Of a stretch of DNA of 64,000 bases, positions 1 through 64,000 are shown piece after piece. The DNA is from Lingula anatina. Taxonomy: Eukaryota; Animalia; Brachiopoda. The notes beneath the pieces are model-generated. The model was not told where the DNA came from. It did no database searches and worked only from the letters and a program-made list of their open reading frames with translations. Position numbers and translations under genes: made by a program. The stretch lies in the NCBI GenBank assembly GCA_051362555.1, contig CM120641.1, forward strand, positions 29,518,401 through 29,582,400, written 5' to 3'. Numbering within the stretch: the stretch's first letter is position 1; each line of letters starts with the position of its first letter.

Positions 1-1063
1 ACTTTACAAATTGGCAAATATGTCAGGACGTCTGCCCTAGGGTATACTGGCCAACATGACAACCCAACATTAAACAAATAAATTACCTAGCGATCACTTT
101 TTTTATCACCTGTTAATATCAACGGCTTTTATATTTTTCCTTTTTTCTTGTGTCAGGATTTCTATTTCATGTGCTATATTGCGCATTTTTAATATATGAT
201 CTATTTTACAGTTATGTGCACTCGATAATATTAAAATGTGCAATATTGTGCGACACAGCGCAAAACACAAAAGAAAACAACTCTGAACATAAGTAAACAC
301 AGGAATCGGTCACTTGCAAGAAAATAGGTTGATATAAAATATATTGCTAGGTTATTTATATAAACAATAAAAAACCATGAAGATGTAAAATATCAGCATT
401 TATTTTTCTCATTGCAATGTATAAACATAGGCAACTCAAAGTTTTAATTGTCAGTTTAAGACCTTTGTGTTTTGAGGTGAGATAACAATCAGTATGGGGC
501 AAAACTTTATCCCTGAATAAGATTTTATCACGAAAATTGGCAAAGTTGACCATGAGTGTATAGGCTACTATCCTTAGCCGTCATTTTTGTTTAAATGACT
601 GTGTTATGGAGTTACGAGTCCCTAATTACCGTTTTAGGGACTCGTTTAGGGGGGGGCAGGGAGGAATTTTCATGGGACAGGGGGTTGCCTGGGGTAATTG
701 TCCTGATGCCATCAGACGGCTTATCATAAGATAAAGAGTTACAAATACACAGCACAAGTTAACAGTGACATGACATCAATCATAATTATCATCATGATAA
801 ATGAAGCTGCAATGAATTACCTAGACTAGGGTCTGTGTATATCATAATTTCACACTGCAGCACTGACTGACTGCCCTCTGACTCTAGCATCTCAGTTAAT
901 TAATAAAAAAAAAGCAGATATGTTCCTGTCTTTCTTATAGCACAAACAAATTAGAAAGATTGCAATGAGGCAAATGATTGGTTAATATCCAACATTGACA
1001 GTATCATCATGATTCATATCAAATCAATGTGCATGTTTGTTATATTCCACAGAAACAGATGAG

Positions 1064-4000
1064 ATGGATGAAGTGGTGCCTCAGAGTTCAGGGAACATGG
1101 GGGCATCATCAGCTGACCCTGAATTGGGGGACTCTCAAGAAACAACCACCAGCTCAGTCCCAGTCTTGAAAGAGTTTGAACCTCTCAATCACATGTTGAA
1201 TATGATTCCCAGCAAAGCACAACGGGGTCTAAAGGTGTATCCTATTGATTTAACATGCCTAGATGCTTCAAAGAGTTTCATTGCCTTGGGATCAAATCTG
1301 GGAATTCTGTTTCTTTATAACAGAGAGAAACAGTCATTACAAAGGCTAACATGTGATGTAAGCATTTTACTGATGAACCTTTTTTCTTAAGTACTGCATT
1401 TATTCTTAAGTGACTGTCTACTTTGCATAAGCAGATGTCTTTCATTTTTGTATCACAATCACTAGATAATCTTAAGCAGTATGGCTATGTCCCATTGGTC
1501 TCACTGGATATATCATAATAAATGTAGAAAGCTTCATTCAAAATATACAGCTTTATATTCAGGCATAACTGAAATGCTTGGTTTTCAATTTCTTCATAAT
1601 GTAACGTGTGTATTTTGTAATTATTTCTTTGCTATTCAGGTTTTAGCTGTATATCAACCACTTTATACTTCTTTAATAAGTGTTGTTTCTTTTTTATATA
1701 AGTCAAAAAGTGAAGTAATGAGCTGTGTGAAGATGCAGGAGGGCCTGGAGTTCCAGATTGCACTGGGAACCCACTCTGGATTACTGTGTGTCTTCATCTT
1801 GCCTTCCATTCTACCTGGCAGAAACAAACAGGTATGACATACTGAGGTCAGCCAAGTATATTTTCTGCTTTAAACCAAATAGCTTTTTTTTCATCAATCA
1901 ATGATGGATTGCCAAAAATGTCAAGGGCATTTCATTTCCTTTAAGCATTGTAAATTGAAAATATGTCCGAGTTATACTTGATGGTGTAATATCTCAATAG
2001 CTTGTTTGAAAAAAAGACAATAATTGATGACTTGCTTGCAATTTCATTTTATAGCTATTGAAATTCACAATACCTGGTTTGCACAAGAGTCGCGTGACTT
2101 GCCTTGAATGGAGTACAAATGGAATGAAACTTTACAGTGGAGATGAACAAGGAAACATTGTTTGCACAAAAGTTGATATTGAAAAGGTAAAGTGAGAGGT
2201 GTATGTTTGTGTTTAGTGTGTATTAGCTTTAAATTTAAAGAGGGTATAGAACCAAAAATTTTTTTCATCATTGACAATATGTTACATTCGTGGAAAGTCA
2301 ATTTTAAACTCATTTGATGAAGCATGTGGTAAAGCCTTTTTTTAATGACAATTAACAATAGTATAGTCTTATTGCATTTTTAGGGACAGTGTGCATCAGA
2401 TATTATTTTAAAAGAGAGCCACAAAATTGTTCAGCTGGACTATGCTCACAAAACCCTGTTGGTATCAAGTAGAATGAGAACAATTTTATGTCACACGGAA
2501 AACAACAATTCTGTGTCTCAAGTTGGACAAAAGGACAGGAAATGGTAGGAACTTACAGGCATAAAAAAATCAACCAATTAGTGTTGTAATGATTAAAGGG
2601 ATAATAACTCTTTGTTTCGGCCAAAAAATGAATTTGCCTGGAGTAAACAACAATTTTCCCATACTTACCAATGGTTAATGAATCCATTTTTACATTAAAA
2701 ATTAGTCCCTGGTTTTTTTCTAAAAAGTTTGGTTTTTTGTTAAAATCTCTTAAGAGATTTTAACAGAGTATAGCCATCAATGGAGGTTACGTGGTCTAAA
2801 GACAAGCTCAGATATCATAATAATAGCTATAACTGCCGTTTTTGTGGTAAAACAGAATATATTATTTTTCTATAAGTTATTCACAATGTTTTTATTGTGA
2901 AATATAGATCTCATACGAGGAGTTATTATCCCTTTAAAATAATTCTGCAGTGATTTTGAAGTATCTCAATCCAATTTTGTCATATACGTATAAAAAAATC
3001 TTTGTAGCATGGATAAATACATTTTGATATTCATGCATAAAATTTAAAATGTTACAAAGTTTTATGTCTTAAAGCATTCATTCAGGTCAAAAATAATGCG
3101 TATGGTTCAAGCCAGTTCATTTCATATTAACATTTTTCCTCAGTGGAAAGAAATACAATCTGAAATAGAAATCCAGCTTTATTTTCTTAAAACTGACTGG
3201 AGAACGCCAAGCAAAATTTGCCAATCTGTTGTATAAGTATAGGAATATATGATTTATGCATATGATCATAATATTTCAGCCTTGGTAACTTTGGAGCCTG
3301 TTTTGTTGCTGGTCTTGGACAGAAGGACTCTTATCTCTATGCTGCTAGACCTGGACTGAGGCTGTGGAAAGCAGGTCTTGATGGGGAGGTCAAAGCCACA
3401 TTTATTCTGAAAGATATACTCAATAATTCTAGCTGTCCTTCCATAGAATTGTTAGACACCCTGTCTCCAATCAAGACTGTTGTCAGTCCCTCAGACAGAC
3501 AGTTTGGGCCTGTGGTTGTGTATGACAAGAAGCACATAATGACTTGGAATGAGAGCTCAATGTATGTCTTGGACCCTGAGGTGAACGCAGTGGTTGCTGT
3601 CAGCAATAGAGTGGGAGTCCTGAAAAGCATTGTGACTTGTGATGATGAGATTTTTGTGTTGCGTATGGGCTCAGACAGAAATGTGATTAGAATTGCTCAA
3701 AAACCTGAGGAACTGAATATTCCCAAAGGTGTGTATTTGTTAAATGGAATTTGTTTACCACTTATTTAATTTGCTCATTATTTTCTTTTCTGTAAAATGC
3801 ATTGCAATTTGCAATTGCAAAGAAGTGTGTCACATGTTTTATTTGTATATGATGATGAGTGAATCTTATTAGTCATCCAGTAAAATAAGAATGTGAATAA
3901 CTCTGATTAGCAACTGTTGTGGTCTCAACCTGAAATCTTCTACTAGGAAAATGACCTGGATGGGCTGGTCACCTGATCTATTGTCACACTGCTAGGAATA

Positions 4001-15466: not shown

Positions 15467-16319
15467 TTTGATCTCTGTAGACGTTATTCAATATACTTTA
15501 TGACGGAAAATTACTTCAGCTTCTGCAGAAGCCCTATAAATTTAAAAAGCAAAAGAAAATAATGAAATATGTAAATAATTTTGAAAAAGTTACCTCAAAC
15601 TAATATAACCTGCCATTGTATACATTTTGTAGCACTGCCACAGTAAACAACTCCATATGTCTAAATCATTAAAGGATTTTACAGCTTGAACAATACAACA
15701 AGCAAGGAATAGAACCTAGACAAACATGTAACTACAAAAGGAAATAAAAATATCTTTTCCATGTTGCCATTTTAACACTAAAGTCCCCAGTAACAAGCAA
15801 ATATATGTATATAATAATACGGTTAAAGCCTTTAAGGTGAAGGCATGTGATGTCAAAATAGGTATGTCTTGTGATTAAAACATGAATGAAAGCAGCAAAA
15901 CAACTTGAGTTTGGTCAGCAAAGCTTTTTCAAAACATTTATATAAAATAAGTAAATCTGGACAAGGCAATATCCACATGTAACATATTAGTAAATTTCAC
16001 TCAGATTTGTGATACAAAACTTCAAATAATTTATTGTTGTCAATTCTGAAAATAATTTGAACTAAGGTCAATTTCATTTGACATTTATGCACACCTGAGA
16101 CATGCATGTTTTGGAGGGGAATGTACTGGGGGCACAGAGCCTCAGAGGGTAAAATATTTAAGTACATCCCCGCACCATTATTCCCCCACAACGTTACTCA
16201 ACACTGGTAAAAATGCACTTAACATTAATCAATTATTTACAAAAATTACTGTAAATACTGTTTCTGGAAAAACTTCTATCAATCATTCAAATATCAATAA
16301 GTGGGAGTTACGATGCGGG

Positions 16320-25314: not shown

Positions 25315-27034
25315 CAGCATGAAAGACTTGGATAACTACAGGCTTGTATCTAACACAACCTGTGTTCAACAAAAAACAGACATCAATGCAAGTTTAAAGG
25401 GGTGGTGCACTAAAATTAAAGCAGCAATGAGATTGCTGTGAAGACTGAACTCCATGTCAATTATGATTTTTCACGTTGGCAGTGTTACTTGACATTTATT
25501 GGAAATGTTTTGCAGAGTTGATTAGGTTACTTAATCATGGGTCCCAAGCATTAACTATTTATGTTAATTTAATGAAAAGGTTCAAACAGAATTAGAATAA
25601 TACTTGTTTTTTTTTTTATGTTTACACAAAATTGATACATATATATGATTGCTTAAAGGAGTATCATTTGCTTCTGGAATCACTGTAGTATAAGTATTGG
25701 GTAACTGGTATATTCTTCCTTAACGCAATTTTATCTGTTGCCAAAAATCACAAGTGTTATCACTACATCCCTATAACAATTCGCACGTTAAGGCTTAGGG
25801 CAAATTGTAGGTTATTTGTAGGTTAAGCCTTGGATAAACTGTACAGTGGAGTGAGCAACAGTCTTTATATTTGCTGTTATTACAATATATTTGCTACTGA
25901 GTAGCTGTAAAATACATTCGACTTGTACTAAAACTCACTGCTCAATCACATAACTTCTCTCAGATAAATATTATATTCTGATGCAAGATGCTTAAAATAG
26001 AAACATTTGAGTACCTGTTAAACTATTTTAAATAGCGTTGGCAATTTTCTTGTCAAGAATCTTTAACCCACATGAAAAAAAAAAAAACAGTATTATGTAA
26101 GAACTGGGAAGATATTAACTGTAAAGATTGTTACTCAGAGCAGATTTCATAATGTTCATCTGCATGGTTGTGCTTCCACTAAACTTGCCATTCCACTGTT
26201 GCGAGGAACAATTCCTTCTTCTGAAGTAGGACTTTAGTATATGAATATTCATACAAACTTTTTTCAAAGTGATAATGCTTACTTCCTGCTGTGGAAAGTG
26301 CTAAATTTTCATGAGGTAAACATATTCAGTAAGCAGCTTGTTTGATAGAGTACTTTTTTATGTATACTGTAAGGCAAAGATATTTTTATTATTTTGTTGA
26401 TATTGGTAAATTCAGAATTAACATAACTTTGCAATTTGCTCTACTTTCAGTCATTTGAATTCACAAGTGCACTCTTTATTATACCAAAGAAAATGCAATT
26501 TTTTTTTCTTTGTTTTAGATTAATTATTCTTATACATGTATGGTCATAACGATTTGAAATTAACTTTAAAACATTAAACATTGAAATTAGGGGAAATGTT
26601 TTGATTCAATAAATGTGAAATGTTATTTAAAACAGAAAAAATGTTTTGTCTTATAAAATTTGGGTCTGGCTTAAATTAAAGTTCCAATTAAATTTCTGTA
26701 TACAGGCACTATTGTCAGTCTTAGTAATCCTGGGACCTTTGCTGAAGTTTTCCTGCCACAACATCAGAAGGAGGCGAACTTTCCCAACACTCTTCACACA
26801 ATGCAAGAAGCTACAAGAGAGAAACCATTTTCACATCAGTTATGTATCACATTAATCTATACTTTTTCAGATCCATTGCATTAGACATGATTTTACTCTT
26901 AATCACAATTTCACATAACACAGTTTGTTGATCATTATTTAATATTGGAGTCCGTCCAACATACACGTAACCTCACCTTATACTTGACTAATTATAATGA
27001 TTATTTTTTTTCTTTTACCTAGATTCAGAATTTC

Positions 27035-30000
27035 TTATACCTGTGTTCCATATATTCCAAGTTGCCCTGTACTTTTCATGGCATGCAGGTGTTGTGTTGG
27101 TATGGCAGGTTTGGCTGGGAAAAATTTAGCATAGTTTTTGGAAAGATTGCCACTCGCTAGTAGTTCCATGTTTTTCTTTCCCACAGGTCTTTTTAAGTTC
27201 TTCAATTTTAGTTTGCGGTTTGCAGATTTGGTTTCATCCCAGCAAAAAGTGACACTTCTGTTCAGTTTTTGTCTGTTTCCTAAGTGGGGTTTAGGGTCGT
27301 TTTTATACCCACCAGTACTTTCTTGGCCAGGTAAATATATGGTTTCCAATGTGTCACTCTCATAACCTTCTTCCAGATTGGTGAGGCCAGTTTTGACTGA
27401 AGTGTTCGAGGATTTCATTTTCTGTATAATTAAATTGGCATCAGATATTAGTGAACTAACAGATTCAGTGTCAGAGTCTCTCAGCTGGGTCACTTTGGGT
27501 GGTTTAACATTGCATTCCTGAGTGTTTATAACTCTGTCCACTGGTGACCACTGCGGTGCCTTATTATTGGACACCAGGTGGCCAGATACCTTATGCTGAT
27601 GTGGTAAGGCAAAATCTTCATAGGTGTCATCCCAACAAAAATCTGTCTCATCATCTTTGATGTTATCCTGGCCTAAACTGTTCAGTTGAGGAAGACTCCT
27701 TTGCTTCCTGAGATATTCCTCTGTGAGGGGAGATTTTGGTGGAATAAGTCTCTTCTCTGACAAAGACGACTTTCCATCTGTATCTATTTTGAGTGAAAGT
27801 GCCTGATGTTTTCCTGGTCTGTTACCTGGTAATGGTTTACTGCTGGCATAGTTCGATTTGGACAAAGATGAAAGTTTACTGTACACAGGTTGCTCAGTAT
27901 TAACTCCCTTGAGATGCACTGGTAAGTCGTACCTCTCGACAATGGGATCTGCTAAAGACTTGCTACCAGTCTGAGTTGTATTTTGCATTTCAGCATCTGG
28001 ATTGTCGAATTTGTCATCAGAATCATTGAGGATGATATTGTGTTTCAAAGACTGGACATCAGATATCCTGACATACAGGTCTTCTCTGCTTGTGTAGAAA
28101 CTGTCTGATGGACTTAAAGGCAGATAGGGACTCTCTTGATATCTGCTTGAAGTGGATTTTGAGCGAGAGTGTGGGGATTCCCTTGAACACCATGGTTGTG
28201 ACTTAACATCAGAATTCTCCAAGGTATGAATGTTGTGATTTGATTTTGAACCATTGTGTTTTTTGTATTGGGAGAGCGATGCAGATTTAGATGCAGAGGG
28301 AATCTTTTTCATTTCATAGCAATTCACTGAGGAGAGGTCACTGTTGGTCAAGCCAAACTGACCAGTGTCGATGTTTCTGCCCCCATGAAGTGACTGCTGA
28401 CTACCAAACACACTGTCAGAATCTGTTGCCATGCTATGCCTTTGAGAAAAAGGACTGGGTATGGTGCTGTGACCATAACTGATGCCAGAGTCAGTACTAA
28501 CCACAGAATATCTGTTCTTAGGGACATTACCGTTTTCAGCACTGCTGGAGCTCAATTTTACATTTGGTCTGACAGTTTTGTGACGGGCTTTCTGTTTCTG
28601 GATGAATCCACTTAAAATTGAGTGACTTTCCCCCATACTTCTCAGCGGTTGAGTGTATATTCCTTTTCTTGTTCTAGGTTCATTTTTGAAGTACATCCCA
28701 GGACGTGTTCCCAGTGGTAGTCCCTCTGGTCTCAGCACCACACCACTGTCTTGGCTGCACGTGCTCTCTTGAGAGGTAGAGGAGTTTCTCTTTTCTGCAC
28801 TGTCATCTGGAGTTGTTGCTGCATTTGTGGAGATAGATGAAATCTGACTGCTGTATAAATGTGGATTAGTACTCCTTATGCCTTTCCCATTTTGTATTTC
28901 AGCAGTATCAAACCCTGATGTAGTGAGACTGGTCTGCTTCTTTTCAAATTGAGGCTGACAATCCTTTTTTGATCTGGGCTGGTGCTGTCCAGTTGCACAT
29001 GCAGTATGGACTTCTGCATTTGTGAACGAGGTAAATTTAGATTTGATGGGCAGGTTTTCATTCTGGAGATTTGTATGTAGCTGAGTTGGAATAAAGGCAC
29101 TTGCAGCTTCTGGGGCTTCCTGTAGCCGTGGTAACAAGGGAAGCTTTCTTTTAGTTCTGATTCCATGTCCAGAGGTTCTTGATGATTTTGGCTCAACATA
29201 ATTGGGATCTCTGGCAGTGGAGAGCTGGGTTGTCATCTGACTGTCTCTGGACTGTATGCTATCGACACTAGCAATGGACAAAGTATCATAACAAAGCTTG
29301 TAGCTACTTTGAAAATGTTCTTTGGGTAATGTCTGTTGATTGCCTTCCATGTTTTTATTGTAATTTGTTGCCAGCTGATTATATTTTGTTGCATCTTCAT
29401 CGATGCTGTACAAATTTTGGACCTTTTCTTTTTTGTGTGACGGAACCTCTGGTAAAGTTCTTTTCCTTGTCCTGCCAATTCTACTTTTTGAGTGAGAACC
29501 TGGATCTAACGTGGACGTAACAATATCTGGAAGTTTCTTGGTCCTATTTTTAGAAAGTGGTTTGTTCTTTTGATTGCTTTTGGTTACTCCAGTGGCTGAG
29601 TGAGTGACTGAGGGTGTTTGATGATTTAATACACCCAGCATTTCAAATATGATCAACCCCAAAGCTTTCATGTCTGCTTTGAATGGATTAGAATCCATTT
29701 CTCTAATTGCCTTTTTGTAAAATTTTGGCGTTTTCATAACTGTTGCATTTTCAAAGTCTCCAATAATTGCCTGAAGGGACTTGGTCTGAAAAAAACAAAA
29801 AAAAATGTGTTAACCATAAATTTGGCTGCTTGAACAGTGGTCAGGACCTTCATTTGTGGACAAGAAATTCATTAATCACTGGGCCCAAAGTAAAGATTAT
29901 GGTCCTTAGGTATGGACAACATATCCATTAAAATAACAGCAGTTTTACAGTGTGGCATCCCTTTGGAATTCTGCCAGACACAGTCTCCACAGTGGCAGTT

Positions 30001-33000
30001 CAGTTGATTTATTAACTTAAGCCATGTGATAAATGATTGCGGGAGTGGAGTTGTCTCAATTAAAGCAACCATCTTTCACACCACCCTTCAACCTTGTTTC
30101 TTTCAAGTGGCATGTTTTAAATGCAAGTCCTTTCCTCCCAGTCAAATTTATTACTGCTGGGTAGCCAATTTGACAATGGAGTGTTCCTCCTATTAAATAA
30201 GCTGCCCAGTGATACCTGTGCCTTCGGGCTGGAGGCACTAAACGTGGTCATCAACCTAGCTGGAATGCATACAATATGTCTTCCCTTACTTTAATATACA
30301 TATTTGGCATAGTGACTTTGGTCACAAAGGCTATTGTGTACTCCAAATTAAAGGTACTATATAAGTCAATGTCTACAGTGGTCTCTGGACTCATTCTTAC
30401 TATTATTCTTTAAAATGCTGACAAAGGTTTAAAATATTGAGATTTTTAGTAACATAAAAATGCCTAAAATGTCTAAGGTAACATTTAAATGCGTCGTTTA
30501 AACCTTTAAGTGATAATAACTCTTCGTATGAGATCTATATTTCACAATAAAAACATTGTGAATAACTCGTAGAAATATAACATATTCTGTTTTACCACAA
30601 AAACAGCAGTTATAGCTATTATTCTGATATCTGAGCTTGTCTTTAGACCACGTGACCTCCATTGATGGCTATACCAAGCTTTTTAGAAAAAAAAACAGGG
30701 ACTAAATTTGAATGTAAAAATAGATTCATTAACCATTGGTAAGTATGGGAAAATTGTTGTCTACTCCAGGAAAATTCATTTTTTGGCCAAAGCGAAGAGT
30801 TATTATCCCTTTAAGCTATCACTGTAAAGATAATCAATTGTACTAATAGGAAATCTTATTTTAGTTAAGCTTTAAAATTGAGAAGCTGATGTACAAACTG
30901 TGAATCTTTTAATTTTAATTGATATTATCCTGTGGTTGGTGGATCCATTATGAGGTTATCCCACACACTGACCACACACTTAGACTAAGATATTGCAATT
31001 TTACAGCCCGCTAAGCCAAACTGATGTTATTTGAATTGTGATACACTAGCTACACATGACAAAGGTGAAGAGAGTGTTTTTATTGCACACCAGTAAAACA
31101 CTTCTTTGATTTGAGTATGTCTCGGGTATGTTGGTTGAGTATCAGTATTGCATAATACTGAAAACAAAATGTTTCACCATTGTTATTGTATTGCAGAAGG
31201 AAAGTATTGATTGTTTACCCATAACAGTTTTCTTACATTTAATGCGTTATCATGTAAGTAATGAAAGGCAGTCAGATGGAGAAGCAATGTTTGGTGTTTC
31301 AAGTACTCAGTTAAGGATGTGTTATAATCTACGGAAGTATGTGCACAAAGTTCGGGCACTTAAGCCACAGAAAAGCTGGTCCTGTTCTTTTCTTAACCTA
31401 AAACCACTTGTGGCTAACTGCATGTCCTGTACCTGTAGATGTGCCAACCTCTTGGTATATTAGCTTCTGACACCAAAAAATTTCTTTTCAGACTTCAAAA
31501 ATATTAATTGTAATCTAGTCGCGCTAAATATATATACTTCATTTTAAAACATTGATGAATATTTGATTGAAAATTCATAATATAATTTTCCGTCTAACAC
31601 AAAGGCAGTTTCTACATATTTTAGCATGCTGACAGTATTTTAGGGGGTTGGGGTGAACATGAGATTGAATGTTTCTAGGACATGGTCAGTGTAATTACTA
31701 ATCTCATTCAAATTAAGGTAAGAGGATTATTCTGCACTGTTAGGGCATTTTGCTTAGGTCAAATCACATAATTGCTGTTCATAGCTATTTAACTGGGTGT
31801 TAAGTACTGAGATAAACAGGTGGCTGGTGTCCCCATTACTGTCATTATCAGGTAATCCTTTAATTTCCCAACCAGGCATTATTGCTTAATATAAAACTAA
31901 ACTTGATCTGGAGTGCAGGTAAAATTGAGAATGTCTCCCTATGAAATTGTTTTAATTGGTTCAATGGCATGTTGCACGTTGAAAGCATGGTATTAATTTT
32001 CTTAATGCATTACAAAAATAATAATAAGGTATTAAAACTTTTTTGCCAAATATTGTCAGTTGTATTAAATTAAAACATACTGTGACAAATGTTTAGCAAC
32101 TCCTGCAAACGGAAAGGTTATTGTCAGGGAACAAAACACTACCCCCCACCTGCAGCCACAAATTGTATCTATTCAGTTACAGGATGACACAGACGCTATT
32201 CAAACTGAGAAATGAAAACAGCGCCCTGCGCTTAAAATGCACTCTGTTTTGCCTTAATAGCTATAGATATAAATTGAGGAAATGAAGAAGTTAAAATGAA
32301 TGTGTATGCACCTGTAGTGATCCCTGGACAAATATGGTCTTGGTGGTCAAGTTATTATGGACAATGCCCAGCTCATGCAGGTGTGCTAAGCCTCTGCTTA
32401 TATCTGCTGTCAAGTTATGCAGCACCACCTCTGTCACAGCATGGCCATGGTGCTGCAAAAAGTCATACAGTCTGGCAAAGCGGTAGTAAGGTTGGCAGAT
32501 TATTCTGAATAAAAAAAAGGGAAAAACTGGCTACATAATTTATACAATAAACATTTAACTGCATCTGAAAGAAAACTTTTTTAAAAGTGAGTAAGAATGA
32601 CAGATATGTAATGAATATTCCAAAGCTGTGATTGTTAAACTTCTTTTATAAGCTCTTATTTATTTTAAAATACCTTAATAAACCCTCCATTAATTAAATG
32701 CCTTATCATTGTATTATTATCAATTTTTATACCAACCTAGACTCCTTTTGCATCCAGTTGTAATCCACACTCTCAGTGTCACTTGGGAAGTGGAAATGAT
32801 TAGCCCTCCACAGACATGGTGCAAGATTCTCATGCTCTGACAGGGCAAGTCTGTCATACACTGCCTTCTCAGTGGTCCACTTGTCTCTCAAATGTGGAGG
32901 ATAGAGCTTCACTGTCCCTTGTTCTACCAGACCTTCATCTCCCTGAAGCCATTTTACTTTAAATTTCGAGGGCCCATTCTGTTATGATGAAGAAAAATGA

Positions 33001-35169
33001 TGAAAACATCTTAAATCATTTGGCAACCATGTGGACTTTTGTTCTGTGTTCAAACTAATAAAAAATTAAGAACTTAAGGGCAGATAACATGGACACAATT
33101 GTTCATGAGAGTGGATTTTGGTTACTTTTACTTCAATGTGCAATCTTAACTTTGTATTTTTGATTCGTTCAAACCAAAACTTGTTACAGACCCTTTTTAA
33201 ATACAGCTTTGGGCAAATTCATTACCATCTCTTGCCATTACATTGCATGTGCTTGCTGTCAAACTGAATAATGTTTTTTTAATGAGAAAGTTTGAATCCC
33301 TCCCTCCCCTCCCCCAAAAAAAAAAAAATTGCTCCATAATTTTTCGAAAATTTTTCCCCTATAACCCATAAAAATATTTTAAAACCAAACAGAATAGGTT
33401 GTTGAAGTACGTGTTACCTATAAAGACACTTTTACTTAACCTTTCAGAAAAGAATGTGTTTAAAAAAAGCTTATTTTTTTAAAATTCTGGTTTCTTTTAA
33501 TGGTCCCTCATAAATGTCTTTGCATTTAATTGTGACTCTAGTTGTGAAGAAGCTGCTAGGAACAGATTAGTTTTCTGCTTTGAAAATCGAGATCTGAATG
33601 CTCCTTTTGACACTGGGGGCTTCAGGTTATTGGTCGTCAAAACAAACTCTTGATTTCAATTTGTCACATCACTTGACGCACCTTCAAGTCGTGCTGACAC
33701 AATTTACATTTCCCAAAATTCATTCCCCAACAAACAATGAGTAACAATAATTCTTTACCTTTTTGTTATGCTTGATATCCTTGTTTATTTTGCAATTTTA
33801 AACCCGGGGATTAAATTTTGGTGGTTAAAATAGATCAGTTACGTATTTGTTACAAAAAAAGTTTCATTTACACATTTTTATTGTTGTTTTTGGTACTTCT
33901 AATATTTACATAGGAATCTGATATTAAATTAAAGGTAGTTATTTTTGCACAGCAAAATAAATCTATCCAAGAGGGTGGTCAGAAAATACTTACTGCAAGG
34001 AATTTAAACTCAGAGTTAAACATTTGTTATAATTGCTTTGATATTATTATACAGATGTTTCAGTAAACCAACTTCTTTCAAGAATTTCTAAAACGATATG
34101 ATATGACTGCACCTGTTAAGAAAAATCTGTACTAATTTTATGAAGTTTATATTTCTCCTTCTTATTTTTACATGATCCAAATAAAGCAGTAAAACCTGAT
34201 TTGATTTTCATTTCATTCAAGGTGCATACTTTAATTTAATGTAATTGTAGAATAAACATAAATATTTACATATTTCAAATTTATTTAGCTTACAATTGTG
34301 CCCTTTGATACTAGAATCTCGGTTGTAGGTTGCGGGCCTTTTGTAGTTTGTTACCTTTCACAGATTGCCAGGCAAGGGAGTGAGGAATCTAACCAATGCA
34401 ATGAGCAACTTGTGTCATCTGTAAGGCATACTAACACCCTTCATTAGGTATAATATTTACATATAGCCAGAGGGGAGATATGCAAACCCAATCGAATGAA
34501 TATTTTACACCTCACTGAATGGGCAGTTAAACTATTTTCAAATAATTTTTCCACAAAGAATTGCCCTGTCTCACATTTCATTATGACCTCTGTGTGCTTT
34601 ATACATTGAGCTTTTGTGACTATGAGCTAGCTTGAAAGCAAACGTGAAAGATTTTGCGAAGCCTGGTTGGCTATCTTGCCGGTTACTGAAGGTACTAACA
34701 CTTGCACCAAAAGAGTGAGTTATCTCCTGCATATGAAAATCAATCATTTGTAAGTGTCAGGGAAAATTGTTTATTTTTCCATCAGTTATACTCTTGGTAG
34801 CTTAAGCATGAACTATGGGATAATGATCTTAAGTGATCACCATGATTTCTTCAATTGGGATTGCTGACCTCAAGTAATGTCTAAGGTCAAAGTTGCAAGT
34901 TTAGCCTTGGTGCATTCAAATAATGTTCACTCAGTGCATTGTGCTACAGCTAGACAATTGAGTGCACTTTATAGTCATGTCTTTCAAAATTAATATTCAG
35001 ACATCCCTTTTCATTCAAATAATCATTAAATGTGACAGAAATATCTGCGGTAACATATTTAAATTCTTAAAGTAATACTGTAAAAAATTATGCCACAATC
35101 ATATTATGTGAAATGATGGCCAAATGCACATGCGTGTATTTGAGGATTTAGGATTTTGCTAAAGGAGCT

Positions 35170-35205
<36 letters not shown>

Positions 35206-37292
35206 GGGTTTACTTTGGTTTTGCTCAACTTAATTGAAGTCTCAGGTTATACTAGTAAACCCCTTTTTGCTTTAAGGACATGAAATAAATGTCAAACACA
35301 AAGAGAAGAGTCTGTAACGATGAACAGCAAAGTTATTGTCACCCTTTTTATGGAATTAGGTATACATTTCAATGGAGAAACATTTTTCAAAACGTACAAA
35401 TTGTTAGAATTTCTTAAGCATTTTTTTATGGTCATTTTATGCTCTGTTTGCACAGACTGAAAGAAGAGCATTATTATCAATCTATTTTTAAAATTTAGAC
35501 ATATTTTTCAGAATGAATAGGTGACAAGTTTTGAGGTGACAGTTGAATAAAAAGGTTTATGGGTGATAAATACTAGCATTATGTATCATGTTTTCATTTG
35601 GTTTGCATGTGTGACTAGAATTTAGCTGTTTGTTTTGACATACTTTTTTCTATTTTATGAAACAACTTCATAATTATTTATCTATTCATTCAGTTATTTA
35701 TTGTATTTCCTAATTTATATACTCATTCATTAATTTTTTGTGCATATTCAGTTTTCCAAAATGGCATATTGGATTATTATTGTTAACATATGATCGAGAT
35801 TGTTTTATCCCTATTAATCAAAAGATATTAATTATTACCACATAAAAGCACTGTTATTAACTGAGATCTTTTGATGTGACTGTATGGCAGAGGTAGTTTG
35901 CATGAGCTATATGGAGCAGAAAAATTAAATCTGTCAGACATAACAGTAACACTACTAAATTTCACAAATACTATATTACTTCAAAGGGGAGCACGCCCAC
36001 AAAGCCATCAACTATGGTCTGATCAATATTTTGATATGATCTTGAAGTTGGGGTGAAGTTACAGCTGGTGCATTTTAATGTGGCCTTACCATATTCACAT
36101 ATAACTAGTAACTAGCATTAATCCTTTCCATGTTACAGGTGTAAAACTAAGTGTCTGATATGGACTATGGGCAACAACTATCAATAGCATTAATCAACAT
36201 CCACTTAATGGAATATTTCACATCAAGGATCTAATTCTTTAAAAATGAAAAATATTTGAAGAAATGTTGTATAAATTATCGACAGTTCATCTCTGATTTT
36301 ACACAAAATAACACAAATACAAAAGTATGCATTCTGTCACAAAAATCATCCAACCTCACCTTCTTGTTTATTGACAAAACTTGCATGTCTTCTAGTTCAA
36401 AGGGTGCATCCTCCTGTCTCTGTGTCACACGTCCACAGCAACACTTCATACTAGACAAACTGGCACACGGATGTAAGACTGTTGTAAGACTAACACACAA
36501 TCCAAAAATGCACAGCTCTTGGGCATCATTAATGTTGTAATCCCCGATGAAGGATAAAGTAAGCACTGTTAAAATAATTGTCCAACATATCAAGTTGGCT
36601 GCAACTGGTAAGAGAACTTTGACTGCCATCTCTTTATTGGAAGGAACAGTCCTGAGCTTTGCAACATTGTATTTTTGTACCCTGTTGTTTTTAATTGTCA
36701 GTTTTGCTATTGCTGCTATAGCAAAACAGAGCCCTGTAAAGATGCTGATCCAACTTATGGACAGCACTATCACTGCATATTCCCAGCCCTTTTCATGGGG
36801 TAACTGTAGTGGACTGCATGGTATGGCAGTGGCATCATAAGAACTTTCAAAATAAGGTAAACCCATGTAAGGCAGTGCAGTCACAGTGGCAGAGAAAATG
36901 GTAATTGTTACTATAATGATGCAGTAATTATATATGTGCATTTTTTCATTCTCTGAAGATGGGGGAATGAAAAGAAGAGAGGTACTTGTTGGCACCAGCC
37001 ATATGATAATTTGTGCTGAAAATGTTCCCAAGAATCCAGCAATTCTACATAGATGTTTTTCTTCATCTGACAGATATCCTCTGAGCACATGAAGAATGAA
37101 GGATGTTCCCAGCAGCACATAGCAGCTAAATGTGAGGACAAAAATGAGATGATACAGCAGAGGGTGTCTTTTGAGTTTACAGTATATTCTGCTGCAGATA
37201 AGACTGAATAAAAACACTGCATTCAAACTCAAACCAAGCACAGCAATCCCTGTAGAAATGTGGGAGAATGTATCCACAGTAACAAGGATCAT
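27035..37292 (-). CDS. Predicted ~1372-aa fusion protein: LGR-like 7TM domain, TGF-beta-receptor-like pseudokinase, ~850-aa disordered tail, PDZ-binding C-terminus
   Basis: Minus-strand exons 37292-36360, 32978-32737, 32504-32312 and 29785-27035 have canonical GT-AG sites and matching phases (0,2,0). Exon 1 has seven hydrophobic segments. Kinase-like motifs: VKLYP..RDKWTTEKAVY..SEHENL, RGLAHLHELGIVHNNL, IIGDFE, DMKALGLIIFEM. Ends GTQV*. Confidence 0.8.
30510..30810. mobile_element. TTAA-flanked MITE, copy 3 (opposite orientation to copy 1)
   Basis: Reverse complement of 2597-2933 with a small internal deletion; right end GAGTTATTATCCCT|ttaa. Confidence 0.82.
35173..35200. repeat. (CA)n microsatellite
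   Basis: Directly visible. Confidence 0.9.
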
Positions 37293-38789
37293 TTTGATAG
37301 ATGAACTGTCAGAATATAACACTTGGCAGGTTACAACTTTATCTTGTTCAGGATGTCAACCTATTCTACTTAGTACTTGTGGATCCTTTTTTTTTTCTTG
37401 ACAAAACTGATATGAATACTTCATCTGTTTCATGCTCATTGGATACATACGCCTTGCTGTGTGGTGACTGGAATAAAGAAAAAAAATGAATACCAAAAAC
37501 TTTTGAACATATCAAAATTTTTTATAAGTAAACTGGATTTCAACCTTTAAATCATTTAAAATGCAACTTAAAGTATCATTTTTAAATGCAACTTAAAAAT
37601 GATACTTTAAAATGTACACATCATTTTCTTTAAAATCCTCCTTATATCATTCTCTAGGTCTAGCAAACACAATATGATGTTATCTTGGAGAGTCATTTAC
37701 CCATGTTTTAAAAGATGACACTTCCTTGTCTTGACCCCACCTAGCTTCAGTTCAGTGACACTGATAAGGTTTGTAAGTTAGTTCATTTTTGCCTCCTTTA
37801 TGTATCCTTTAAGCCCACTGAGAGGAAAGTAATCCAAACTTTGAGATCATAAAGTAATCTGGATTACTAGCTGTGCCTCCTCCCTGATCCCCATACTAAA
37901 GTAGGTATCAGGGAGAAGAAGACATTCACGATGGAGGAAAAAGGAGCTGCAACGCCATTATATTTCATTTCCAGGTGCACAGAAATAGAGAATTGCATGT
38001 CTGTTCCATTTAGGTAAGCGCAGGTCTCTTCACAATGTTAAAGGCAATGTGCATTTGATTCTTTTTTCTTTTCATTTGTGATAAAATATACAACAGACTG
38101 TATCAGGCATATCAAGTATCATTTACATTCAAAAACATTATTAATTTTTTCCCGTTTTTTCCTAATTGTAATATAATCACTTAAAAAAGTATAACCAATG
38201 TTTTATTGTTATTGTGCGTTTTCTGTCACAAAACATCACATGAAATGCTTTTGGACAAAGCCACTAGTTTAAGTGAATGGCATTTCCACTTATAACAACA
38301 CGAAGATTGCTATGCAATCGCTCACAGCAGCAGCTAGACATTGTTCCACAAAATTTACTATACTGAATTATCTTGTAATTGACTACAAAAATTGCCCCTC
38401 AATTTCCTCTGGTGATGCCCAACACTTAAAATTGATGATGATTTTCATGTCAGACCACATTGAGGAAATCCATTACATTGTCTCAATACATTTGGACCAA
38501 CTCTGGGTTAAATTTCAAGGTTTTGTTGAAGCCTCTATTAGATGTAATTTTGTTTGGCTTGTGCCACGCAGTACCATGCACCAATCTTAGAAATTGTGAT
38601 GCAATAGCCCACTTATAGCATTTGAGTATAATTTAAGAGTAAAAGGAAAGGGATAAATGCAAGTCAAATTATTGCATACTTTAAAATAATATTTTTATAT
38701 TATTAAAATAATGGAACCCAAATAACTTCAGCGTAACTTGGACACAAGTTAATTTAAAGAAGTTCTCAGAGCAAATGTATTACAATTAA

Positions 38790-39138
38790 AAGTACACTCC
38801 ATGAGATTTACCCACCAAAAAAGATTTTCCCAAGAAAATAAGCCATTTTCTTGTACTCATGAACCATATTTAACTACCCCTTTCTGCACTGGGATTTGAC
38901 CTTTGATAAAAATAATAAAGGTTGATTTTAGCTTAAAATGACTGACCAGTTATTATAACATCCACCATTTTCCTATAAGCTCCAATATGGAAATATCAAC
39001 ATAATTATAGTATGCTTCAGGAAAAAAACTATTTTAAGGAGTTAAATCATTTTTAAGGTGTATATAAGGTTTTATAGGAAATTGTGGATGGCAAAAAAAA
39101 CTATACATTTTGGGGATTTTCAAACACGGAGTGTACCT
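38790..39138. mobile_element. Second TTAA-flanked MITE family (Kolobok-like)
   Basis: ttaa|AAGTACACTCC ... GGAGTGTACCT|ttaa: an 11-bp TIR with one mismatch. Confidence 0.65.
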
Positions 39139-40270: not shown

Positions 40271-42260
40271 ACAATACGGCTCAGCTAGCTCAGGTGGGGA
40301 GATACCAGTAACGACACCTATTTGGAGAAGTGGAAATTTTCAGATAACAGTTCGAACAGGAACATTTTAATTGTGGTTGTCAATCTCGGAGTGTAGAAAT
40401 CCAGAATGCTCCAATTACAAGTTTTAACCTAAATCTTTAAGTTAAAGACTCTCTTCTTGATTTTTCTGTTTTGGGGCATTGTACTTAGGCCCCCTTTACA
40501 CTGGACGGCGTCCTTTCTGCGTCCCCTAGTACGGCCCCGTTTGAGAGTGAAAAAATTACTTTACGTGCCGACAACTGGCCGATCATTGAGCATCTATTTT
40601 GCAACGAAAGCGATGCTTGAGCTCTGCTTCTAATGCATCCAGCATAGCTTTGTATTTTGCTTTCTTGAGATCGGCATAGAGTATTTCTTACTAGCTTGCT
40701 AACTCATTTGCTTTGTGGTTCCCTACATTTATTTCTCTACTTATATATCTTCACATAAACGGTGACTAAGTAGCCTACTGCGTTTCCATCCAGGTGGGTT
40801 AATGAAATGGTCATTTTAATTTAATTACACTTCTAAACTGAGAGCTAAATGGCTTCTAGATTGTCCTGATACAGATTGATAGCTTAACCGATTAAATGAG
40901 GTGAGTCATATAGTTTATAATTTCAAGGTAGAGAACCATTTCAAAAAACATGAAGTTGAGGTACTCCATTTGACTCGACTATAATAAATAAAATAAAACA
41001 AAATGCATCTATGACACATAAAATTATATATAATCCTTATGAATTTTTTGAAATTAAATTGAATGGAATTGATAAGTTTTGTAGCTGCTAATCCAATAAA
41101 ATGTTTGGAAAACTGAAAATTCATTTACGATTAAATATGATACGATAATAAACTACTCATTTCCTTTTGCATTTCGACTTTTTCTTTGAATGGTATGTAC
41201 GTGTTTTCATGTGCCCATTTAATGCTTTTATATTTTTTGTTTTGGGAGTTGTCAAGAATTTCATGGTTGATTCCATGGTTGTATTTGTCCCGTATCATTG
41301 TGGTCATCGCACAAGATGTTTTGTGGTTCACAAATTTCCACCAGAATTAGTTCTAATGCGAATACCCTATGCAGAATAATGATAGTTTGTGTAGTTACAT
41401 GGCACTGTTTTTGGACCTAAAATTATGGTTAACCGAAGAACAACAGAAACATCCTAGCATTCTTTTAAGCCAAATGCAGCCGACCCAATGTAAAGAAGGG
41501 GTTATATGTTTTGATTTTTTAATACGAGACAAAGATGGCACGGGATGTTATTTTAGTCTCAAAATACCTGGCATATACATATTTACGCAAACCATAGCGG
41601 CATGGTAAATACCCTTTCAAGACATCCTATCCGTGTTTTCCCCCCCAAATCGGATTTTCCTCGGAAAAAATCTCCTGCGCACGAATATTTGCTGGATCCG
41701 TGCCTGTGCTCGGGTTCGACGTTTTGTACAATTTCTAATTATATAAATTACTGGCCAGTCAAATTAAACACGATATTGAAATCGATATGAGGTACTTTTA
41801 ATTAATTTGAGGGGTTTTATCGTTTTTTAGACATGGCCACGGGCATTGTGAAGTGGCGGGGGGGGGGGGGGGTCGGACATACGTGCACTTGTGCGTCAAA
41901 TTTTTGAATTGAACAAACTTTTCGATCCGTCAAAAATGATGACAATGTTTTACTTTTTTGATGATGGCGCTTCCATTTTTAAGGGTTTCAACATGTATGT
42001 CATTATTTCTTTGATGTACTTAACTGTTTGAGTAACCCTTTCAACGTTATATATAAAATGGAAAAATATAATTCTGATAAAAAAGACATAAATCCATTAA
42101 TTGCTCATCATTTTTTCTGATCAAACTTGTAATAGTAGACATGCCCTTGCACAATTCACTTATCGCAAGTGATTTTTCATAACATAGTGTATATTTGCAG
42201 CTGAATAAGTTTGATCAAAGCAACATAATATTAACTATGCTGAAAAGTGTACTTAATCAT

Positions 42261-45200
42261 TCATCTTCTTTTCTTTGTAGTTTTCAATCCGACATATTTG
42301 TCGGTATAACTGTGTTTAACGACGTCAGCAAGTACCACGACAGAATGAAAACGAAACCAAATCACCAAAGGAAACGTCAAAGTAGAGAGTATCGCCCAAG
42401 CAGTGAATGAATAAAAGTTTTGCTGCAATGTGTTTGGATCAGCACTTCGTAAAGCAAAAGTGTCAAGAGCCCACAAGCAAAAATTGATAAACTGAAGAAA
42501 AATTAGCCCTTGCCTTCCTGGTTTTTCAATCGCGTGTTCCCGTGTAATGGAGCGACGCGGCAAAGCGAAAGCCACAAGGAATACAGTCTGCATGGTTGTA
42601 CTAATGATATCGATACAAATCGAAACCATGACCAAGGTCCTGAGACTGTCGTTTTCTGTATCCCCAAAAATACCAGCTATAAATGTGAGAATGGTATATC
42701 CTAGTACGCCCATATATGACACACCCATTAAAGCCTTGTCGAGCATCTTGAATTGATGTCGGTTCTCCTCTGCGAACATCCTGCGCTCTCTGCGGTGTCT
42801 TGCTTCTTTAAGAAAAGTATTCTTCTTCGACAAAGGGCTCATTTTGATGTACGTAAAAATCGATGTCACAATGCTCAAAATATTGAATAAAAAATCTGCT
42901 ACGAACAAAGTTACAGTGGAATGCCAACGGTGCAATTCAAACAACCCATTATTACTGTGTTTTTCCTGACCGGCATTGTGCAAGAACATCATAATGACCA
43001 CCAACATAAAGCATAACAGAAGAAAGCCCAAGTATGTCCCAAAGTGATAAGTGAAATAACCGTTGTGGTGCCGGTTACCGACTTCAACTCTACCAAGAAA
43101 ATCAGTTTTTGGTGTGCCAACGTGGTTTTCATCCTTTTCTTCACTGGCATCAATGTTTCCGTCCTCTATATACGTAGTCCTACGCATCTGGACTTTCTCC
43201 CCAACCTTTGTCCAAATGATATACACCATGGAGGCGGAGAGGAGGCTGTGTTCTATCACGCAAGGGAAAAGGTAAGGTGAGAAAGTATTCTGTATCCCGT
43301 CGCTACACTTGTAACTCGGAGTGAGAGTGTGACCAGTTGTTGAATAGCTACTGTCTGAAATATTGTAATAAAACATGGAAAATTCAAAATGACATAGTCT
43401 ACAGCTAACTTTACTTTTTCTAACTTTACTTTACAAAATATGTGATTTAGCCCTAGACCTCTACCAAAAGGGAGAAAAACTGATCTGAGTTCTTAAAAAG
43501 TGCAATAAAAGTCCAAAACTTGGGTAGGGGTGGGAGATAAGAATAATCAAATCCCCCTCTTTAAAATAATATCAGGCTTTAATTTATAACACCAATAATA
43601 AAGGCCGAGGATCCCTATGTGTCGACATTTTGTTGGATTGATCAATATATGAAAACCATTTCAGTACCATAAACTTATATCAGTATCTGCACCAGAGCGA
43701 CCCTCATGTTACTCATATTAACTTCGTCGAAAATTACCATACGTTTTGCGTGCTGCCGACTTTAAAGTCGTGACCGTGGCTAGTAAATTTTTCAGACGTA
43801 CAAGACTATTTCCATCATATGGAGGTCTTACAACTTTAATTTAATATGAACGATAACTCGCAAAATATTGGAATTTTTAATTTTTCACTACTCAATCACT
43901 GATATTTTCACTATAAGATTGACGATGGATTTGGCAGAGTTTATTATTATTACTATAACTTTAAAACGCGACGAGAAACCTTTCAAAGTTAATCGTATGT
44001 ATGAAAATGAATATTAACGGGTTATAATGTAGGTCTTTATGTACTTTGGACCACATCGTTTGCAGCAAAATGGTGAGATGCAGTAGTTGTGCCCTGTGGC
44101 AGCTGTGCGTCGTGCTCTTCATGGCCTGCAATCTCCTCTCTCGCCTCTTCCACTAGTGTGCTGAGCCACACAGAGAGATTGATACCAAAAAGCAACATCA
44201 TGCCAAACTTCGACAAGACTTGGATCCAAAAGTACTTGTTGATGCGAATCTGAAATGGTTAAATTTTGAACCTACATTTTTATAGAATGGTGAATTTGAC
44301 TGTCAAAAGCTGGTTCAAAGGAAAGGGGGCACAAATACATATACATACACTGTGGTATGTAGTGCAAACTCATAAAAAAACTATTTAGTTTCGCAAAAAA
44401 ATGAATGAATTAATAAATGATTTAAATAGAAATGGAAAACGTTGTAAATGTTACCTTGGCGTATATGAAAAACAGGTAAACCTGTAAAGCTGTGAATGTT
44501 ATTTGAGCGATGGAATTCATGAGAATAGTGGTTTCCAAGCAATTGGCCGCCACATCGTTTTCGTATACTTTCCAGTTTATATATTGCACTATACGGACGG
44601 CATCGTATATGATAGTTCCCGTGCCAAACACTGAAATATTATCACACGATATGTATTATCAACTGATATACTGTAGTTCGAGTAAAACTTAAATAGCGTG
44701 GTAAGCCTTATTTAAGCAAATAAATAAATAAATAAATAAATGAAAAAATAGAGTTACAAGTAACGTTGAACGAGAGACTAAAATTTTAAACTTTGAACTT
44801 TAATACGGGTTGATAGACCGTAAATTTATGAACGGTTTTAGATATACATCGTACATGTAGTGTACCTCGGTGAGGGGGAGAGAATTTCCAAGAACATTTA
44901 CTTTCGATATAAAAAGTTTAATGCGTTTATTATAGTTTACGATCGAATCGAGAAAAGTCAACATAAATTGTATGTAGACGCACCAAAAAGGGTTTGCAAA
45001 GTGTCCATTGACATACTATACTAACCAGCAACTCCCAGCTTCTGAAAATTTATGCCGTTCGATTTCTCTTCCTTGTAGGTGTAATCGTTGGTCAGTTTGT
45101 CCTTGGCACCCAGTATCAATACAGTCAGTATCCACGCGATTCCCAGACAGAAGAGGACAGTCAGATAATTCTGTGGAGCAAAAGACGAAAATGCCGACGA

Positions 45201-46362
45201 TGATACATTTTTATTTCATTGTTATAATAAATCGATCATTTAGTAATAAAGAGGTGTATAGCCTTAAAATAATGCCTACTGCACAAGACTGCCCTAAAAG
45301 GCTAAGGAGCAAAGTCAAACATTTTTTACAATAACAACGCTACGTGTACATTTTATTCTATATTAGCCTACTAGTGGAAAATTATTGATGAAAGTTTGTG
45401 TACGGTTCATAATCAAATACGTAACCCTAATAAAAAGAATATAAAACTGTACATCTATTATATAGGCCCTATATGCATGCTAGTTACACATGTAAGAATA
45501 TAAAATATTACCTGAATAACAGCCTCTTCCAGATGTGACTTTTCAAGAACACTGGCAGTTGCCAACGAAAGTGTTATGATTCCAAGGAATCCAGTTATCA
45601 TAAAACTTATTAGCTTTAAGTTTTTAGGATTCGCACTGGAAACATGGAAATATTTACGTTTTTAAGCCAATGGACAATCTACAGTACTGTTACTTTGCCA
45701 ACCTAACAACTTAACAACTTGAAATAATTTTGTATTTTATAGCTTGAAATAATTTTGTATCTTAGACCCCATTCCCATACATAGATCGATCTAGCAGGAT
45801 CGACCCATCTCCGAGGGAATTCTTGCTGAATTATTCAGATTAAGCGGCTCTGATGTCTGGCACACTTTCTGATGCTGTTAAGGTGTAATTAGCTATCGCT
45901 TAGCAGCTTCAGTAGTCTAAGCCGCTTAATCTAAATGCAATTCAGCGAGAATCCCCTCGGAGATGGGTCGATCCTGGGAGATCGATCTGGGTATGCGGAT
46001 GGGGTCTTATAGCTGATTGTATGTGAAATTAACGGAATTTGCTAGTGTAATTGAGGTATTCAGCCCATACGAATAGATATGAAAGCGAAGATTTACAGAA
46101 GTAACAGTGAAAAGATTCAAAGGAAATTTCCAAACGTGTACCATTCCTTTAGATCTAAACCGATAACTCGTAATGTTCGCCACTTCATTGGTCCCCTTCT
46201 TAGTACCACTTCAGCGTCCATGGTTCCATTGTCCACGTCGCCTGGCCTGTGGTCCTCAATAATGGCAACATGGTGAACTGGCCTCTGTTCCTTAACAGCA
46301 GTATCGCCTGACTCATTCATGTGTACATCGAATTCGACCCTGTTTTCATGAGAACTGGTCAT
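42261..46362 (-). CDS. OTOP: Otopetrin-family proton channel, ~654 aa, 6 exons
   Basis: In-frame exons 46362-46142, 45635-45512, 45170-45026, 44630-44455, 44249-44045, 43354-42261. Motifs: G...FGTGTIIY, FTALQVYLFF, FGMM...INLSVW..LVEE, SPYLFPCVIEHSL, KPGRQ...FL...NFCLW, QQNFY...AW....L.PL.IWFRFHS. Confidence 0.93.
45763..46009. mobile_element. Near-palindromic foldback MITE in otopetrin intron 1
   Basis: agaccccattcccatacatagatcgatctagcaggatcgacccatctccgaggg...ccctcggagatgggtcgatcctgggagatcgatctgggtatgcggatggggtct; arms ~85 bp. Confidence 0.8.
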
Positions 46363-63167: not shown

Positions 63168-63228
63168 GACACAACTGCAAGGAGACACCCCACATCTACA
63201 CTTAAGCTACTTCGACCATCCCTTGGAG

Positions 63229-63941: not shown

Positions 63942-64000
63942 TCCAACGTTTCATGGCAACTGCAAGGAGAAGAGGGCCACGTGCACACTTCCGATACATC

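Follow-up and report, generated by a model that had tools for sequence, protein, structure and literature searches.

We wanted to know whether a 64,000-nucleotide stretch of DNA from the brachiopod Lingula anatina (contig CM120641.1; the whole stretch is called the window below) holds one gene that fuses a seven-transmembrane (7TM) receptor to a kinase-like domain, and what such a protein could do. A first-pass annotation of the window had read there four minus-strand exons forming a single open reading frame (ORF) of ~1372 amino acids (aa), with a 7TM receptor, a TGF-β-receptor-like pseudokinase and a PDZ-ligand tail. Splice and ORF analysis of the window gave a minus-strand gene with five exons, which join into one 1400-aa protein (Table 1). 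The fused architecture is almost certainly real, and relatives were found in six other phyla, in agreement with one gene fusing a 7TM domain to a pseudokinase and conserved in lophotrochozoans and invertebrate deuterostomes. As to its role, we favour, with a probability of roughly 0.55, a G-protein-independent membrane scaffold receptor made of an ectodomain-less 7TM domain of the LGR (leucine-rich-repeat G-protein-coupled receptor)/GRL101 type and a pseudokinase split by a predicted-disordered loop.

The four exons proposed at first were recovered with GT..AG introns and consistent phases, and every motif quoted with them is present in the sequence, but the fifth exon had been overlooked. Introns 2 and 3 (232 and 2526 nt) are GT..AG, and exons 1-4 join without a stop. 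The ~1372-aa ORF arises only when exon 4 is read on to the stop at 27035, whereas the spliced product has 1400 aa. At 27040, exon 4 has a donor site, CAG followed by GTATAA; exon 5 is present in the RefSeq protein XP_013386959.1, is homologous to the C-terminal block conserved in the family and belongs to the kinase fold. For these reasons, the GTQV end that follows from the genomic sequence is, on sequence grounds, read-through of intron 4 and not the main C-terminus. The five-exon protein ends with SQDY, and the PDZ-ligand tail attributed to the Lingula gene has to be withdrawn. An intron-4-retaining isoform with the GTQV end may exist, the RNA bins being too coarse to judge retention. XP_013386959.1 (P0001, Lingula anatina, 1401 aa, labelled 'uncharacterized'), retrieved in the exon 1 search, has the same five-exon joins with 60 differing alignment columns. 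Ahead of the ATG by 22 codons lies an in-frame TGA (37358-37356).

To look at transcription, six raw RNA runs with the same species label were mapped to the window, and joints were listed only when carried by at least 3 reads from 2 starts. RNA depth was low, but it was located on the exon bins and on both untranslated regions (UTRs), and every exon was covered. The exon 2/3 joint was seen in 8 RNA reads, 4 each in runs X8 and X9. The case named at first as refuting the fusion was that of 7TM transcripts ending at the read-through stop at 36276, with the kinase transcribed from a separate promoter. The bin containing the end of exon 1 (36344-36677) had a depth of 1.6-4.1 in three of four runs, while the bin holding the intron-1 read-through stop (36010-36343) had a depth of 0 in four of four, so that separate transcripts of this kind are not seen. 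Over the remaining intron 1, RNA depth was zero or near zero except in bin 33004-33337, whose reads we read as a low-complexity match. The RNA check of the 36360/32978 joint was therefore answered in part: the exon bins are covered and the read-through stop is empty, but the joint itself was not listed. In the first RNA mapping, reads on a transcribed repeat at 30504-30815 drowned out the exon joints, which could not be read. This repeat, located in intron 3, is a 312-bp element with 23-nt terminal inverted repeats that draws thousands of RNA reads from other copies, and it looks like a miniature inverted-repeat transposable element (MITE).

The residues that define an active kinase were then compared over 19 family rows. 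All of them have the alpha-C Glu, 18 have the beta-3 Lys and 15 the DFG Asp, and another row with a gap at that Asp shows DFE. The HRD Asp is found in a single row, and N, R, H, S or L occupies the catalytic-base position in the other 18. No row has the catalytic-loop Lys or the APE Glu, the catalytic-loop Asn is present in 3, and the Gly-rich loop and the substrate-binding loop are missing. Lingula reads HNNLTTKT at the catalytic loop and DFE at DFG; the HRD Asp, the catalytic-loop Asn and the APE of active kinases were not found there. Judged from these residues, the kinase domain is a pseudokinase.

For the fold, AlphaFold2 was run with a 21-row alignment on P0002 (XP_013385304.2), a second Lingula RefSeq model that is 97% identical, starts at the end of TM7 and so lacks the 7TM domain; it is an allele, a duplicate or a truncated model. 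The prediction was confident at residues 14-231 and in C-terminal helices near 1071-1117, with a predicted local confidence (pLDDT) below 50 over 232-1070. The model range 12..1119 aligned to whole kinase domains (Z ~23, root-mean-square deviation ~3.3, ~250 residues), and the kinase-like fold expected from structure prediction was thus found in the model. A complete bilobed kinase fold is predicted to form from the N-terminal 230 and the last 50 residues, with a loop protruding from the C-lobe. As the structural alignment runs over 12..1119, the last 50 residues would complete the C-lobe and the long region would be an intradomain insertion, a point missed by the first-pass annotation, as was the LGR/GRL101 origin of the 7TM domain. 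The insertion (~839 aa) is rich in Ser, Lys, Thr and Pro, is predicted to be disordered and matches no Pfam family. The first kinase strand is encoded in exon 1: the model strand covers aa 299-307, and structural alignments begin at aa 293-299 on residues 197-207 of TGFBR1/ACVR1. A kinase-only transcript starting from intron 1 would consequently miss the first strand.

The seven hydrophobic helices claimed for exon 1 were found as seven segments at aa 11-279 of the Lingula protein. Pfam 7tm_1 matched this region at E 0.087 only, and because Pfam scarcely detects the 7TM domain, annotation overlooks the fusion. The expected 7tm_1-like character was weak by this measure, but the family profile searched against the PDB matched RXFP1 best (E 1e-14), then TSHR (7e-14), and lower-ranked search matches were LDLa-LRR receptors of the GRL101 type. 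Pfam found no LDLa/LRR ectodomain in the Lingula protein, which has ~8 residues before TM1. The 14 family rows with a full N-terminus have 4-23 residues there, and Saccoglossus, outside that row set, has ~70. An upstream LRR ectodomain was considered and rejected; the ORF scan showed no LRR or LDLa exon between the gene and the otopetrin gene upstream. R3.50, Y5.58, N7.49 and the disulfide positions are established landmarks of class A receptors. In the alignment, R3.50, Y5.58 and N7.49 are present in 0 of 15 family rows versus 11 of 11 LGR rows; the DRY and NPxxY activation switches of class A are missing from the family. The Asp of TM2 and the D/E-R of TM3 are both missing in Lingula, whose TM7 sequence is HPCAS. 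D2.50 (0 of 15 rows) was set aside, as the molluscan rows show an Asp at a distance of three columns. The Cys3.25 and extracellular loop 2 (ECL2) Cys of the TM3-ECL2 disulfide pair are kept in 13 of 15 rows, Lingula among them, P4.59 is kept in 14 of 15, and P6.50 and Y7.53 in four deuterostome-type rows. The TM5 entry of Lingula has the motif GWEY, as in type-C LGRs. By these sequence comparisons, the 7TM domain derives from type-C LGRs (RXFP1/GRL101) and has shed their ectodomain. A 7TM tree placed the family and 29 LGR rows on opposite sides of a branch with a support of 99; this was a quick IQ-TREE run with SH-aLRT support only, it omitted the near-copies P0112-P0133 and rows below 225 profile columns, and it has long branches at P0001, P0006, P0010 and P0019.

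To define the range of the family, aa 1-514 of P0001 were used in a phmmer search, which gave 109 matches at E up to 0.001. Besides P0001, 12 matches span the 7TM and kinase parts in one stretch (E 6e-34 to 2e-15), so that orthologues with both domains, whose absence had been named as refuting the fusion, do exist. The phylum range rests on the 20 of 109 matches looked up by name, 16 of which belong to the family. The named members come from molluscs (Argopecten, Pinctada, Solemya, Patella, Biomphalaria, Plakobranchus, Argonauta), an annelid (Owenia), a bryozoan (Watersipora), a hemichordate (Saccoglossus), amphioxus (Branchiostoma) and echinoderms (Antedon, Diadema), placing the fused family in seven phyla, Lingula included. 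The 7TM domain, the kinase part and the C-terminal block follow in the same order in 18 of 19 rows when scored with profiles built from the same proteins, the Solemya model having no last block. Several Logan records contain the fusion as a single ORF on contigs of 4-7 kb, inferred to be transcript assemblies. In databases, family members are labelled 'uncharacterized', 'RXFP2' or 'LRRK2'. When the family alignment was used in a word-index search, 2 proteins came up and the family gained no new information from them. In the 7TM tree, the family is joined by twenty short relatives that have the 7TM part only. By eye, many of them stop just past the first kinase strand, often with Val and an unrelated tail, the pattern expected if the same intron were read through. 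An S/T-x-L/V/I end is present in 14 of the 18 family rows with a full C-terminus; the Watersipora end has no such motif. The PDZ idea thus holds for the family but not for the Lingula gene.

The kinase group was approached by structure and by sequence. Among 48,161 representatives, the structural ranking was TGFBR1 (Z 22.9), TNNI3K (22.4), ACVR2 (22.2), a rice receptor-like kinase (21.8) and JAK1 (21.6), the first three being tied within 1 Z. In a second look at Foldseek's 1000 best chains, all 50 entries listed were TGF-β-receptor-family kinases; Foldseek itself placed SYK first and TGF-β receptors from rank 10, with similar E-values. By sequence profile, LIMK1, TYK2, RAF, TNNI3K and LRRK2 came out on top, and the best 60 of 753 matches included no TGF-β receptor. 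Only generic kinase clusters came up when the kinase part was searched against the Atlas. By Pfam, the protein has no GS motif and no activin-receptor ectodomain, and it has seven helices instead of one. The kinase part is, from sequence and model together, of the tyrosine kinase-like (TKL) group and probably TGF-β-receptor-related; given the TGFBR1/TNNI3K structural tie and the differing sequence ranking, the assignment goes no further than this. The TGF-β-receptor likeness claimed earlier therefore holds for the best structural match, but TNNI3K is tied with it and sequence profiles favour LIMK1, TYK2 and RAF. The nearest intact kinases found, P0050 and P0077, are single-pass receptor kinases with intact HRD, DFG and APE; they share the family N-lobe signature and have an insertion after alpha-F, and are possible relatives of the donor kinase. 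P0050 has a weak Frizzled-like ectodomain match. Its Atlas neighbours include 13 of 30 matches in two TGF-β type-I sets plus AMHR2, and no TGF-β receptor was among its 10 PDB matches at E up to 1e-10.

Relatives outside Bilateria were also found. Three cnidarian proteins, P0034 of Nematostella and two from corals, are complete LDLa-LRR-7TM receptors that share the kinase-like N-lobe signature of the family. In these cnidarian LGR-kinases, every GPCR (G-protein-coupled receptor) switch is intact, the C-lobe is shorter and the ends are D-T-x-L in 3 of 3. In the kinase tree (a quick IQ-TREE run with SH-aLRT only, its outgroups being search matches and not reference kinases), the cnidarian proteins group with the family, as does P0033 (SH-aLRT 90), beside P0050/P0077 (91). 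The fusion of the cnidarian and bilaterian forms likely shares one origin, and a single ancient fusion followed by bilaterian loss of the ectodomain and switches would fit both trees. In such a history, a type-C LGR would have acquired a kinase domain of the TKL group, probably related to TGF-β receptors, before cnidarians and bilaterians parted. From the bilaterian copy, the ectodomain and the G-protein switches would later have disappeared, and the loop would have been added. P0033, P0071, P0073 and P0074 are LGR-type receptors with shortened or eroded kinase-like tails, two of them with full LDLa-LRR ectodomains; this suggests that more GRL101-type receptors conceal a kinase-like domain.

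We infer the scaffold role from the absence of a hormone-binding ectodomain, of G-protein switches and of a catalytic base. What is conserved is the 7TM core, the nucleotide-site triad and the two-piece fold, together with the long variable loop and, in most rows, a PDZ-type end. The pseudokinase would still bind nucleotide and provide a docking surface as well as a conformational switch; partners would be recruited by the loop, and the PDZ-type C-terminus of most orthologues, lost in Lingula, would position the receptor. Its input would come from either a partner receptor or a small ligand lodged in the 7TM core, and the pseudokinase would relay the state of that receptor, or of the 7TM domain, to bound proteins. 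JAK JH2 and the kinase-homology domain (KHD) of receptor guanylyl cyclases are regulatory pseudokinase domains in which His-x-Asn replaces HRD, as here, and they offer a works-like model for such a nucleotide-binding switch, although the Lingula chain has neither an active kinase nor a cyclase domain further on. Several observations weigh against this scheme or the steps leading to it. The intron-1 joint was listed in neither RNA mapping (depth 0-4), and the intron-3 and intron-4 joints were likewise absent from the listings. Nucleotide binding is deduced from three residues, with the Gly-rich loop absent, and Lingula has SQDY where most of the family has a PDZ-type end. The 7TM domain has no confident model, a single-sequence fold of aa 1-514 reaching a pLDDT of 37.7. 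Finally, the cnidarian LGR-kinases sit among ordinary LGRs in the 7TM tree, away from the family, and the kinase-tree branch that joins them to it has an SH-aLRT of only 90.

Other explanations were weighed against the scaffold receptor. The pseudokinase could pair with an active type I or type II kinase in TGF-β/BMP complexes as a co-receptor or decoy that tunes Smad, with the 7TM domain as sensor or anchor. All 50 entries of the second structural look being TGF-β-receptor-family kinases, with TGFBR1 first and ACVR2 third of 48,161, speaks for this, as do the TGF-β-receptor clusters among the Atlas neighbours of P0050, the closest intact kinase found. However, TNNI3K is tied within 1 Z, the best 60 sequence matches and the PDB matches of P0050 include no TGF-β receptor, the GS motif and activin-receptor ectodomain are absent, and shared ancestry would not prove a present-day partnership; we consider this role unlikely. 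A receptor still coupled to G proteins or arrestin, with the pseudokinase as built-in regulator of its tail, seems similarly improbable to us. Its seven helices, disulfide pair and P4.59 are kept, P6.50 and Y7.53 persist in the four deuterostome-type rows and the cnidarian LGR-kinases retain all switches, but R3.50, Y5.58 and N7.49 are missing in 15 of 15 rows, TM2, TM3 and TM7 are degenerate in Lingula and there is no LRR/LDLa hormone-binding ectodomain. A bolder view would be an overlooked receptor class dating from the cnidarian-bilaterian ancestor, with a relaxin-receptor-type 7TM domain wired to a TGF-β-receptor-family pseudokinase, whose bilaterian forms shed hormone binding and G-protein coupling and modulate TGF-β/BMP complexes via two fold pieces ~840 residues apart. 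We regard it as speculative and rather doubtful.

A true 7TM receptor kinase with low or atypical phosphotransfer is a further reading, in favour of which the beta-3 Lys, alpha-C Glu and DFG Asp are kept over bilaterian distances. With the catalytic base replaced in 18 of 19 rows, the catalytic-loop Lys absent in 19 and the Asn in 16, and no APE, we hold such activity to be quite improbable. The least probable account, which we rejected and for which we see very little chance, is that gene predictors merged two adjacent genes, a single-exon 7TM receptor and a cytoplasmic pseudokinase. The unlisted intron-1 joint, the twenty short 7TM-only relatives and the P0002 model beginning at the end of TM7 would agree with it. 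Nevertheless, the read-through stop has zero RNA depth, exon 1 encodes the first kinase strand, and the fusion is found in gene models of seven phyla and in single short contigs. By eye, moreover, the short relatives often end as intron read-through would.

Among known systems, type-C LGRs (RXFP1/RXFP2 as C1, GRL101 as C2) share the 7TM lineage, disulfide pair and GWEY of the Lingula protein, whereas the Lingula family has no LRR/LDLa, DRY, Y5.58 or NPxxY and carries a split pseudokinase after TM7. TGF-β/BMP/activin receptor kinases (TGFBR1, ACVR1, TGFBR2, ACVR2) and TNNI3K are structurally close (Z 22-23) and have the beta-3 Lys and alpha-C Glu in common with the Lingula domain. Unlike the TGF-β receptor kinases, the Lingula domain has no catalytic Asp, Gly-rich loop or APE, has a C-lobe insertion of ~840 residues and follows seven TM helices, not one. 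According to the available part of PMC12716839, GPCR-TKL/K and GPCR-TK (tyrosine kinase) proteins, also with a C-terminal kinase-fold domain after a 7TM domain, occur in choanoflagellates and sponges and GPCR-TKL bigrams in oomycetes and amoebozoans; these fusions are described as repeated, independent, confined to protists, choanoflagellates and sponges, and in no case functionally characterised. Compared by description, the Lingula family differs from GPCR-TK/TKL by its LGR-type 7TM domain, its dead split kinase and its bilaterian-wide range. In the available part of a 2023 transmembrane-kinase survey (PMC10463195), GPCR-type kinases of sea urchins and cats are dealt with in a single sentence. 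The sea-urchin 'GPCR-TMKs' are placed there in the TK clade, the S. purpuratus protein listed has 545 aa, and the first blocks of the alignment set sea-urchin 7TM sequence against kinase domains. Two proteins of these alignment blocks, XP_030855453.1 and XP_041469348.1, are nearly letter-identical to the Diadema member over TM3-TM4 and belong to the same family. The pseudokinase, the LGR origin, the split fold and the family range are not described in that part of PMC10463195. Type-C LGRs and GRL101 are treated without a kinase-like tail in the available parts of PMC4079206 and PMC8286064. The first-pass statement that no characterised animal example is known has to be narrowed, since sponge GPCR-TKs and the sea-urchin sentence are in print, but none is functionally characterised as far as PMC12716839 goes. 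No description of the family was found in the literature searched, subscription papers lying outside its coverage, and the family is apparently undescribed as such, though glimpsed once in print. This 7TM-pseudokinase family is kept over seven phyla of bilaterians, and a candidate for its intact precursor occurs in a sea anemone and corals; the resulting series lends itself to studying the loss of G-protein switches by a GPCR that has acquired its own effector. The kinase fold, for its part, appears to tolerate a C-lobe loop of several hundred residues.

Table 1. Features of the fused receptor gene in the window (window coordinates).
Feature	Position	Strand	Remarks
5' transcribed region	37293..38100	-	upper limit approximate; RNA depth in bins up to ~38013-38347
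Exon 1, aa 1-311	36360..37292	-	7TM, KCCCG and first kinase N-lobe strand
Ectodomain-less LGR-type 7TM (exon 1)	37262-36456	-	
KCCCG (exon 1)	36446-36432	-	
First kinase N-lobe strand, ELEDMQVLS (exon 1)	36398-36372	-	
Intron 1, 3381 nt	32979..36359	-	GTGAGG..ACAG, phase 0
Exon 2, aa 312-392	32737..32978	-	kinase N-lobe; also HENL
Beta-3 Lys motif VKLY (exon 2)	32912-32901	-	
Alpha-C Glu motif WTTE (exon 2)	32879-32868	-	
Exon 3, aa 392-456	32312..32504	-	hinge, alpha-D/E, degenerate catalytic loop; Pfam PF07714 E 1e-7
Catalytic loop HNNLTTKT (exon 3)	32359-32348	-	
Exon 4, first part, aa 457-512	29618..29785	-	short segment without APE
DFE replacing DFG (exon 4)	29761-29750	-	
Alpha-F (exon 4)	29674-29636	-	
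Exon 4, insertion, ~839 aa (aa 513-1351)	27101..29617	-	predicted within kinase C-lobe, after alpha-F
Exon 4, end, aa 1352-1371	27041..27100	-	alpha-G-like helix; kinase fold predicted to resume
Intron 4, 230 nt	26811..27040	-	GTATAA..GTAG; first codons yield spurious GTQV end
Exon 5, aa 1372-1400 and stop	26721..26810	-	LLALCEECW...QDY, stop; alpha-H and alpha-I; ends SQDY
3' UTR	26385..26720	-	AATAAA at 26480 and 26390; RNA depth in bin 26300-26740

Elsewhere in the window, short multi-copy stretches at 38878-39085 and 40482-40620 draw many reads with unlike flanks. The otopetrin gene upstream occupies 42264-46368 on the minus strand, its last exon matching PF03189 (E 1e-48); the RefSeq protein P0003 (LOC106156311) matches only its first exons. 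A single long ORF at 14324-15487, also on the minus strand, encodes a methyltransferase of the MraW/METTL15 type (PF01795, E 9e-89). The end of the window, 62000-64000, is GC-richer, tandem-repeated sequence.

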